DNA of 64,000 bases. Source: Escherichia phage Eryne. The notes under the pieces were generated by a model. The model saw only the letters and a program-made list of their open reading frames with translations. It searched no databases and was not told where the DNA came from. The DNA is taken from sequence record PQ529420; one strand, 5' to 3'. Shown here piece after piece: positions 44,190-44,396 of the stretch (position 1 is its first letter; the number at the start of each line of letters is the position of its first letter). The translations under genes and the position numbers were made by a program.

Positions 44190-44396
44190 CAAAATTATTT
44201 AAAGTTTTTACAGATTTTTGGGTACAAATTTTGAAAATGAAAAGTTCAAGTTTGGTCAAAATTATTTAAAGTTTTTGTACGTATTTCTGTCCAGATTTTG
44301 AAAATGAAAACTTCAATTTTTTAAAAATTCCCCAGTTTATTTAAAGTTTTTTTGCCTTTTTCCGTAGAAAAATCAAAAATGAAAAGTTCAATTTCG
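44190..44396. repeat. three tandem ~68 bp direct repeats (iteron-like)
   Basis: Each unit: ATTTAAAGTTTTT ... TTTTGAAAATGAAAAGTTCAA, with internal TTGAA-N9-TTCAA inverted repeat. Confidence 0.6.

Follow-up and report, generated by a model that had tools for sequence, protein, structure and literature searches.

Classical iterons are 17-22 bp long and phased at ~22 bp, and the T7 primary origin, T4 oriF and oriG, lambda ori activation and ColE1 all place an AT-rich unwinding element behind a promoter. In phage P4, crr consists of two ~120 bp direct repeats whose function resides in short protein-binding motifs within each copy, and it works together with a separate ori and with the alpha primase-helicase, which binds the octamers. 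Here we compare these and related systems with an array of three direct repeats at positions 44190-44398 of a 64,000-nucleotide stretch of Escherichia phage Eryne (sequence record PQ529420; the whole stretch is called the window below). Strong evidence from conservation suggests that these repeats are very probably a selected cis element that is recognised in a sequence-specific manner, and we tentatively propose that they form an iteron-like array at a transcription-activated replication origin or a comparable site of DNA-protein assembly.

A further system that invites comparison is the iss site of phage T5, which lies at 7.9% of the genome in conserved non-coding DNA with direct repeats, including two 66-bp DRE, palindromes and DnaA boxes, and whose features keep their order across T5-like phages (Davison, bioRxiv 10.1101/866236). 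For rV5, skew analysis failed to define an origin and revealed transcription-linked changes only (PMC3606486), and the literature searched held nothing relevant on origins or transcriptomes of the Vequintavirinae or Stephanstirmvirinae. We assign the window to a phi92-like virulent myovirus of the genus Justusliebigvirus, subfamily Stephanstirmvirinae, because positions 43400-46200 are 98.7-98.8% identical to Escherichia phages Nernie and Paula and 96.5% identical to phi92.

Results

The array consists of three units with two boxes each

The units are laid out as follows.

44190-44256, plus strand: repeat unit 1, 67 bp, with box A at 44195-44209 and the box B core at 44234-44249
44257-44331, plus strand: repeat unit 2, 75 bp, with box A at 44262-44276 and the box B core at 44301-44316 (one mismatch)
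44332-44398, plus strand: repeat unit 3, with box A at 44337-44351 and the box B core at 44376-44391, without the TTGAA half of the inverted repeat described below

A first-pass annotation of this DNA had claimed three tandem direct repeats, which was borne out by a repeat search of the window: it returned a single family of three co-oriented, head-to-tail copies (44174-44252, 44241-44319 and 44316-44394) with 72% identity to the reference copy and start-to-start spacings of 67 and 75 bp. Tandem Repeats Finder, the tool suggested at the time for fixing the unit boundaries, reported only two copies (44190-44320, period 67, 82% matches) because unit 2 contains eight extra bases.

The claim that all units share the same motifs holds for two boxes and fails for a third element. 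Box A is the 15-mer TTATTTAAAGTTTTT and is exact in all three units; ATTTAAAGTTTTT, which lies inside it, occurs exactly at 44195, 44262 and 44337, and with up to two mismatches it gives five matches in the window vs 1.36 expected, the three exact ones all belonging to the array. Box B, AAAATGAAAAsTTCAA, is present once per unit, and AAAATGAAAAGTTCAA is found at 44234, 44301 and 44376 with zero, one and zero mismatches, respectively, and at no other site in the window (0.30 expected). The starts of the two boxes are 39 nt apart and each box covers ~15-20 bp, while the distance from box B to the next box A varies among units (67 vs 75 bp). The full 21-mer TTTTGAAAATGAAAAGTTCAA, which includes a TTGAA-N9-TTCAA inverted repeat, is restricted to units 1 and 2; unit 3 has AAATCAAAAATGAAAAGTTCAA in its place, and the inverted repeat is missing from the homologous box B of other genera.

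Both boxes, and likewise shorter cores such as TTTAAAGTTT, are confined to the array within the 64 kb. A dispersed or late promoter motif, which would be expected upstream of many genes, was rejected on this ground.

The array is conserved within the Stephanstirmvirinae

Conservation in relatives, on which the first-pass annotation had made its proposal depend, was examined with a 331-bp query that comprised the repeats and the palindromes next to them. Sixty-seven phage records matched this query, 55 of them at 95-99% identity, and 57 hold at least 80% of it. In other genera the architecture is kept at 66-72% identity: the three-unit layout recurs in Citrobacter phage Tr1 (spacing 67/76) and in Klebsiella phages phi1_175008 (67/82) and KP2025 (66/75), and the Phapecoctavirus phages anhysbys and phiWec188 have two intact units 138-139 bp apart with a degenerate copy between them. 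The GenBank records of phages inny, alia and muut already mark the first two units as an unexplained 'repeat_region'.

Sixteen units from six genomes could be aligned in register and without gaps over 68 nt. This alignment conserves TTATTTAAAsTTTTT, a TTT eight bases on, and AAAA.cAAAAtyTAAA.TTT, and leaves 16 nt between the conserved positions unconstrained; judged from these sequences, it is a phylogenetic footprint of two predicted binding boxes per unit. In addition, unit 3 opens with CCCCAG or CCACAG in all genera, and the units are therefore orthologous, which suggests that the triplication predates these genera.

The modular architecture is shared by two subfamilies

The array lies in a gene-free region that contains further conserved modules.

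43976-44736, no strand: gene-free control region, ~750 bp, between the NADAR gene and an open reading frame (ORF) of 88 amino acids (aa)
44415-44475, no strand: three Fur-box-like palindromes, TGATAATCATTCTCA at 44417, TGAGAATCATTAGCA at 44440 and TGAGAATTTTTCTCA at 44457
44487-44530, no strand: GC-rich block GCGCAGGGGTGGTGTTTGTCTCGCGCTCCCGTGTCCCCTCGCC, G-rich on the minus-strand transcript and kept in position in all lineages
44577-44703, minus strand: highly conserved 127-nt element, ~84% nucleotide identity across Stephanstirmvirinae and Vequintavirinae

The 127-nt element is kept at this level in many Vequintavirinae and their relatives, including Klebsiella phage KB57, Proteus phage Mydo, Cronobacter phage CR9 and Pectobacterium phage CB7, where it is mostly unannotated. 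Using the element as an anchor, together with an exact 15-mer scan of IMG/VR, we gathered ~20 distinct lineages. All of them share a common module order, in which a gene stop is followed by GATATTT repeats, ~200 bp of DNA, a triplet of direct repeats, between one and six palindromes with the form TGAtAATnATTCTCA, the GC-rich block, then the conserved element and finally a -10 hexamer on the minus strand. In nearly every lineage, ~67 and ~74-76 bp are the strongest self-similarity periods to the left of the element.

Spacing, copy number and position of the repeats are thus kept between lineages while their sequence differs, being unrelated between a phi92-type group, an rV5-type group (GGTTCTCGATCG..TTTTC..CGTATTTG..GAAAAAATTTTT) and a W70-type group (GAGAACTTGAGAGGTTTTTC). 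All three repeat types are found in E. coli phages, which makes it unlikely that the recognising factor is a host protein; a co-evolving phage protein would be the more likely candidate. Moreover, the mosaic contig L052 (IMGVR_UViG_2706795553_000001, positions 409-2354) combines an rV5-type upstream gene (phrog_12959) and rV5-type, GATC-rich repeats with a conserved element (88% identity) and an 87-aa ORF, both of phi92 type, on its right side. Its recombination joint falls between the repeats and the element, and the repeats therefore move with the left-hand gene module. The gene directly upstream varies by lineage and encodes NADAR, DUF6939 or phrog_12959.

GATC is enriched 2.5- to 5-fold in most rV5-type arrays, with densities of 14-35 per kb vs 6-10 per kb in the surrounding locus, and Vequintavirinae-type arrays (lineages L012, 2090-2310, and L013, 2090-2290, among others) carry TCGATCGA-type palindromes in each unit. 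The conserved modular architecture, made up of the 67/75-bp triplet, the Fur-like operators and the conserved element, is new and is not described in the literature searched.

Predicted minus-strand promoters point at the array across a conserved element

Three promoter-like sites lie on the minus strand between the array and the 88-aa ORF.

44706-44734, minus strand: best sigma-70-like promoter of the region, TTGACA-17-TATACT, 11/12 matches, directed leftward at the palindromes and repeats
44536-44563, minus strand: candidate second promoter, TTGCTT-16-TATTCT, weak, 8/12 matches, read by eye
44445-44416, minus strand: weak promoter-like site, TTCTCA-18-TATCAT, 9/12 matches, inside the palindromes and aimed into the repeats

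A -10-like hexamer is kept at the position of the first site in most of the 20 aligned lineages (as TATACT, TATAAT, TATATT, CATAAT or TAAACT; Tr1 and W70 are less clear). Klebsiella phage KB57 has equivalents of the other two, the one corresponding to 44536-44563 being TTGCAA-17-TATATT at L012 2497-2469, as found by scanning. Because the three sites point leftward, any minus-strand transcript predicted for this region would run in the direction of the array; the promoter scan found no sigma-70 promoter inside the repeat units.

The 127-nt element begins at the predicted start site of the 44706-44734 promoter, and the DNA flanking it is not alignable across the subfamilies. In the consensus fold of its minus strand, a short hairpin is accompanied by a longer helix, with an apical stem that varies in length and is mostly complementary. 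Among the 16 pairs there is one compensatory change (A-U to G-C, in 10/20 sequences) and the rest are nearly invariant; covariation support for the predicted structure is therefore weak, and the single compensatory change may represent one event. A search of 43000-47000 gave no credible Rfam match at E<=1, the single hit scoring 17.2 bits vs a gathering score of 37.8. A search of 5,426 E. coli genomes and of PLSDB plasmids returned no homologue of the element, and a host or plasmid source was rejected on this basis. The element is a candidate for a structured early RNA, that is, a new phage non-coding RNA, or alternatively for a single-strand DNA element.

The adjacent palindromes resemble Fur boxes

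The first-pass annotation had noted an operator-like palindrome cluster beside the repeats. The cluster is real, and 'Fur-box-like sites' is the better name for its members, which fit the Fur 7-1-7 motif TGATAATnATTATCA with 0-3 mismatches, and as defined by the 19-bp consensus GATAATGATAATCATTATC or by the 7-1-7 motif it is the palindromes, not the repeats, that resemble Fur boxes. We take AATGAGAATCATT to be the core of the classical aerobactin (iucA) Fur site. With up to two mismatches to TGATAATnATTATCA, the window has six sites vs 0.93 expected, a count reached in 0/100 shuffles, and all six are non-coding (44417, 44440, 45264, 55514, 56468, which is a perfect 15-mer, and 56663).

Every lineage examined carries one or more of these palindromes at a distance of 92-158 nt from where the aligned element block starts, often with further copies at 29-bp steps. 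Phages of Escherichia, Klebsiella, Salmonella, Cronobacter and Citrobacter share the same palindrome sequence, whereas the repeats next to it are completely different among them. Such a pattern is compatible with recognition by a conserved host factor, for example Fur, and the palindromes may be sites for this host iron sensor; a conserved dimeric protein of the phage may occupy them instead. In the literature searched, we found no description of Fur boxes for virulent phages of this group.

The repeat DNA is unstable and predicted to be curved

Among all 100-bp stretches of the 64-kb window, the second least stable falls in the repeat region, as does the third least stable 200-bp stretch; the GC content here is 21%. 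Phasing of the A3/T3 tracts at ~11 bp ranks 12th of 6378 windows and predicts intrinsic curvature.

Neighbouring genes and strand layout

The genes closest to the control region are listed here, together with a short tandem repeat at its left edge.

41028-42155, plus strand: AAA ATPase gene, left of the array
42230-43423, plus strand: HNH/T5orf172 endonuclease gene, left of the array
43424-43975, plus strand: NADAR protein gene, directly left of the gene-free region
43962-43980, plus strand: CTGATATTTC in tandem, x1.9, immediately behind the stop of the NADAR gene, marking the left boundary of the non-coding region
44737-45003, minus strand: 88-aa ORF (phi92 gp224, phrog_19316), the sole nearby minus-strand gene, 340 bp right of the array

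The repeats of the first-pass annotation are real, and the context given for them was wrong. It had placed them exactly where transcription switches from the minus to the plus strand; the real switch lies at ~38.9-39.5 kb, where the long minus-strand ORFs stop at ~38.9 kb and plus-strand ones take over from 39508, and the cumulative GC skew turns at ~39 kb. Plus-strand genes flank the array on both sides, those on the right being small genes from ~45.4 kb, and a rationale based on divergent transcription does not apply to co-directional genes and to repeats that lie at least 300 bp from any strong promoter. Of its two suggestions, iterons or sites for a regulator, what stands is that the repeats look like selected protein-binding sites, and an origin is plausible and unproven.

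No conserved ORF was found within 43976-44736, and tRNA or tmRNA genes were not found. The terminator hairpin of the 88-aa ORF (44711-44729) falls within the spacer of the 44706-44734 promoter.

The tandem repeat at 43962-43980 has its counterpart in the GATATTT repeats of the Vequintavirinae, which occupy the equivalent place. Two to four GATATTT motifs directly follow the stop of the upstream gene in lineages L013 (1780-1870), L015 (1810-1880) and L009 (8470-8490), and these motifs are common to both subfamilies although the upstream gene differs. The perfect 12-nt palindrome TTTTTATAAAAA occurs twice, at 43993-44004 and 44175-44186, and its copies flank the 170 bp that separate the NADAR gene from unit 1.

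The HNH/T5orf172 gene, which is CapR-domain and homing-endonuclease-like, lies beside the ATPase gene in Justusliebigvirus and in the Phapecoctavirus phage anhysbys, and is absent from phiWec188 (also Phapecoctavirus) and from the Klebsiella and Citrobacter relatives; it resembles a mobile insertion. To the right, four plus-strand sigma-70-like promoters at 45115-45760, each with 10/12 matches and two with an extended -10, precede small genes running toward the genome end, and these predicted promoters are consistent with an early operon served by the host polymerase. Four records labelled 'Campylobacter phage' with the host C. jejuni (MG065639, MG065645, MG065656 and MG065689) share 96-98% identity with this locus; they probably have a wrong host label or else stem from contamination.

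The annotated genome end lies ~12 kb from the array

Direct terminal repeats of 342 bp were reported from PhageTerm for phage BME3 (PMC12210895), and the rV5-like phage LL12 is reported to have a 459-bp terminal redundancy in a non-coding region (PMC6658697). The annotated BME3 terminal repeat maps to 56463-56804 of the window, bordered on one side by a perfect Fur-like palindrome and on the other by a AAAGGGGTGTG motif. It lies ~12 kb from the array, or ~8.3% of a 146-148 kb genome, a distance that depends on a terminus from a single PhageTerm report.

This counterpart of the terminal repeat falls within a second large gene-free, AT-rich region, 55265-56980, which has a GC content down to 17%, the least stable DNA of the window, Fur-like palindromes and a tandem TAATCATTTCATACAG x3.2 at 55880-55930. 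This region probably represents the physical end of the genome and is an alternative candidate for an origin. Exact copies of the 11-mer AAAGGGGTGTG are found at three positions, 44002, on the left edge of the repeat-containing region, and 56799 and 56876, at or beyond the terminal-repeat border. Its minus-strand form is CACACCCCUUU and could be the 3' half of a terminator; its count is marginally above chance, as 6/100 shuffles reach three.

Discussion

Our favoured reading, to which we give a rough probability of 0.35, is that the three repeats form an iteron-like array at a transcription-activated replication origin. The repeats would be binding sites for a phage-encoded, lineage-specific DNA-binding protein that contacts two boxes per unit, and the array would work like an iteron array, which is not to say that it is a proven member of the iteron class. 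Host RNA polymerase would start at the minus-strand promoter at 44734-44706, and possibly also at ~44563-44536 and 44445-44416, and transcription would cross the structured, G-rich leader and the Fur-like operators into the AT-rich array. There, the bound phage protein, aided by transcription or by an R-loop, would open the duplex for the phage replisome, and a host factor acting at the Fur-like palindromes would gate this transcription, possibly by iron status. What the sequences themselves show are the repeats with their conservation and spacing, the physical properties of the DNA, the geometry of the promoters and the agreement with the Fur consensus; protein binding, transcription, origin firing and the involvement of Fur are inferred from these.

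We favour an origin because the physical properties of the array are those typical of an unwinding and assembly site, because the gene-free region holds nothing obvious to regulate, because all nearby minus-strand promoters feed the array, because the sequence is replicon-specific while the geometry is fixed, and because no origin is known for these phages. In line with what defines an iteron origin, the locus has at least three co-oriented, replicon-specific repeats (three units, whose sequence is specific to the lineage among the ~20 examined) next to AT-rich unwinding DNA with predicted intrinsic bending; in line with what defines an R-loop-type origin, a promoter, as judged from consensus matches only, is directed into an unwinding element. 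Origin modules are also known to be exchanged, as are the repeats in the mosaic contig L052.

Several observations weigh against an origin. The units and their spacing (67 and 75 bp) are unlike the 17-22 bp repeats, spaced at about two helical turns, of classical iterons, and the host-factor sites expected at such origins were not found: 43976-45100 contains neither DnaA boxes (TTWTNCACA) nor an IHF core (WATCAANNNNTTR), and a DnaA- or IHF-dependent origin was rejected on this ground. GATC is absent from the phi92-type array of the window. GC skew follows the direction of transcription and gives no origin signal at the array, all promoters and terminators are consensus matches only, and the literature searched contains no replication, binding or transcript data for these phages. 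Furthermore, no initiator-like gene was recognised among the neighbours (AAA ATPase, HNH/T5orf172 and NADAR), although an initiator may be encoded elsewhere. The AAA ATPase was rejected as an initiator, as it has matches to the classic-clade, p97-like family only and is missing in the Vequintavirinae.

Two other neighbours were considered as the protein that recognises the repeats. The 88-aa minus-strand ORF is unlikely, being 65% identical between phages with unrelated repeats. The type of the upstream gene tracks the repeat type among rV5-type lineages (phrog_12959 and phrog_12463) and does not do so in phi92-type lineages (NADAR or DUF6939), and the upstream gene may be regarded as a lead only.

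A more far-reaching version of the origin reading makes the array the initiator-binding core of an undescribed control region shared by rV5-like and phi92-like phages, in which early transcription would run through a conserved structured RNA into a lineage-specific triplet of 67/75-bp iterons and Fur would gate replication or genome entry by host iron. We regard this version as doubtful.

The strongest rival is an operator or architectural array, in which a phage regulator would occupy the three units, possibly with DNA looping to the Fur-like operators, and would either switch the minus-strand transcripts, including the conserved RNA element, or insulate the upstream plus-strand operon from the terminal early operon. 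The position of the array between two transcription units, beside operator-like palindromes and promoter-like sites, would suit this role, the lineage-specific boxes imply a cognate phage protein, and phased A/T tracts are common upstream of regulated promoters. However, the repeats lie at least 300 bp downstream of the sole strong promoter and no conserved ORF is nearby to be regulated; three sites at 67 and 75 bp without an internal promoter would be unusual, and boxes that occur nowhere else in 64 kb are no general promoter or operator motif of the phage. We consider such a role possible but on the improbable side.

An unlikely alternative is that the region resembles T5 iss, so that injection would halt after the first ~8% of the genome, or host and phage proteins would anchor the entering DNA, for instance at the membrane, until early proteins are made. 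The array does lie ~12 kb (~8.3%) from the mapped BME3 terminal repeat, and the intervening 10 kb consists of small genes of unknown function with sigma-70 promoters. On the other hand, the 8% match is one number that derives from the PhageTerm result of one phage, and two-step injection has never been reported for these phages. Their terminal repeat is 342-459 bp rather than ~10 kb, none of the early ORFs tested, each of which belongs to a PHROG family of unknown function, has an A1/A2-like annotation, and DnaA boxes are missing from 43976-45100.

A role at the RNA level seems no less unlikely. The repeats would then be transcribed, either from a Fur-repressible minus-strand promoter in the palindromes or by read-through from the promoters upstream, and would supply the three modules of a non-coding RNA that might, for instance, be a sponge for proteins or for RNA. 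Tandem Fur-controlled small RNAs are known from Pseudomonas (PrrF1/PrrF2), transcription from TTCTCA-18-TATCAT within the palindromes would start ~10 nt before unit 3, KB57 has an equivalent of this site, and a possible minus-strand hairpin with a U-run was read by eye at ~44045-43997. Yet this promoter match is weak (9/12), the units show no conserved RNA secondary structure, the inverted repeat being limited to 2/3 units in one genus, and they are extremely A/U-rich and lack known protein-binding RNA motifs.

Finally, a pac or terminase recognition site or non-functional duplication debris is very unlikely, since, although Fur-like palindromes and AAAGGGGTGTG occur both at this locus and at the annotated terminal-repeat borders and several GenBank records start or end within ~2 kb of the locus, the reported termini, including the annotated BME3 terminal repeat, lie 12 kb away and the repeat boxes are absent from the terminal region, and since debris is excluded by box-specific conservation and by a unit spacing kept across two subfamilies.

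Phages of the rV5-like and phi92-like groups are broad-host-range, virulent and widely used in therapy and biocontrol collections. Our analysis defines a compact cis-acting region of ~750 bp in their genomes and turns an anonymous 'repeat_region' label into a concrete target. If the origin reading is true, this region would be a point of entry for engineering these phages and for building replicon-based tools in them, and an involvement of Fur would mean that a strictly lytic phage has, in an uncommon arrangement, tied a host metal sensor into its core programme.

Among known systems, the array shares with the iteron origins (lambda ori, P1 oriR, R6K, pSC101 and F oriS) several co-oriented, lineage-specific direct repeats and bent DNA beside easily melted AT-rich DNA. 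Firing of lambda ori depends on nearby transcription, which we count as a further likeness, and the GATC clusters of oriC and P1 oriR have a counterpart in the rV5-type arrays. It differs from these origins in its 67-75 bp two-box units, present in three copies only, in the lack of an overlapping or adjoining Rep or O-like gene and in the lack of DnaA and IHF sites. Similar to the T7 primary origin, T4 oriF/oriG and ColE1 RNA II, a strong promoter is aimed at an AT-rich segment of low stability, and the conserved, possibly structured leader with its G-rich stretch recalls the persistent-hybrid features of ColE1 RNA II. Here, however, ~300-500 nt with host-factor-like operators lie between promoter and array, and those origins are without a three-unit protein-binding array.

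With P4 crr, the array shares the design of boxes inside a long unit, whereas no alpha-like protein or second site was identified here. With Fur-box arrays of enterobacterial iron-regulated promoters (iucA, fhuA), the palindromes share matches to the 7-1-7 motif and the occurrence of sites in multiples; they differ in that they belong to a virulent phage genome, do not stand upstream of an iron-uptake gene and in several lineages use 29-bp steps instead of overlapping hexamers. T5 iss differs from the locus in having DnaA rather than Fur-like host-factor boxes, and here the terminal repeats are short and no A1/A2 homologues were seen among the early ORFs tested. Like T5 iss, the locus is a conserved non-coding region ~8% from a genome end, with repeats, palindromes and host-factor boxes in a set order and with flanking genes that diverge.

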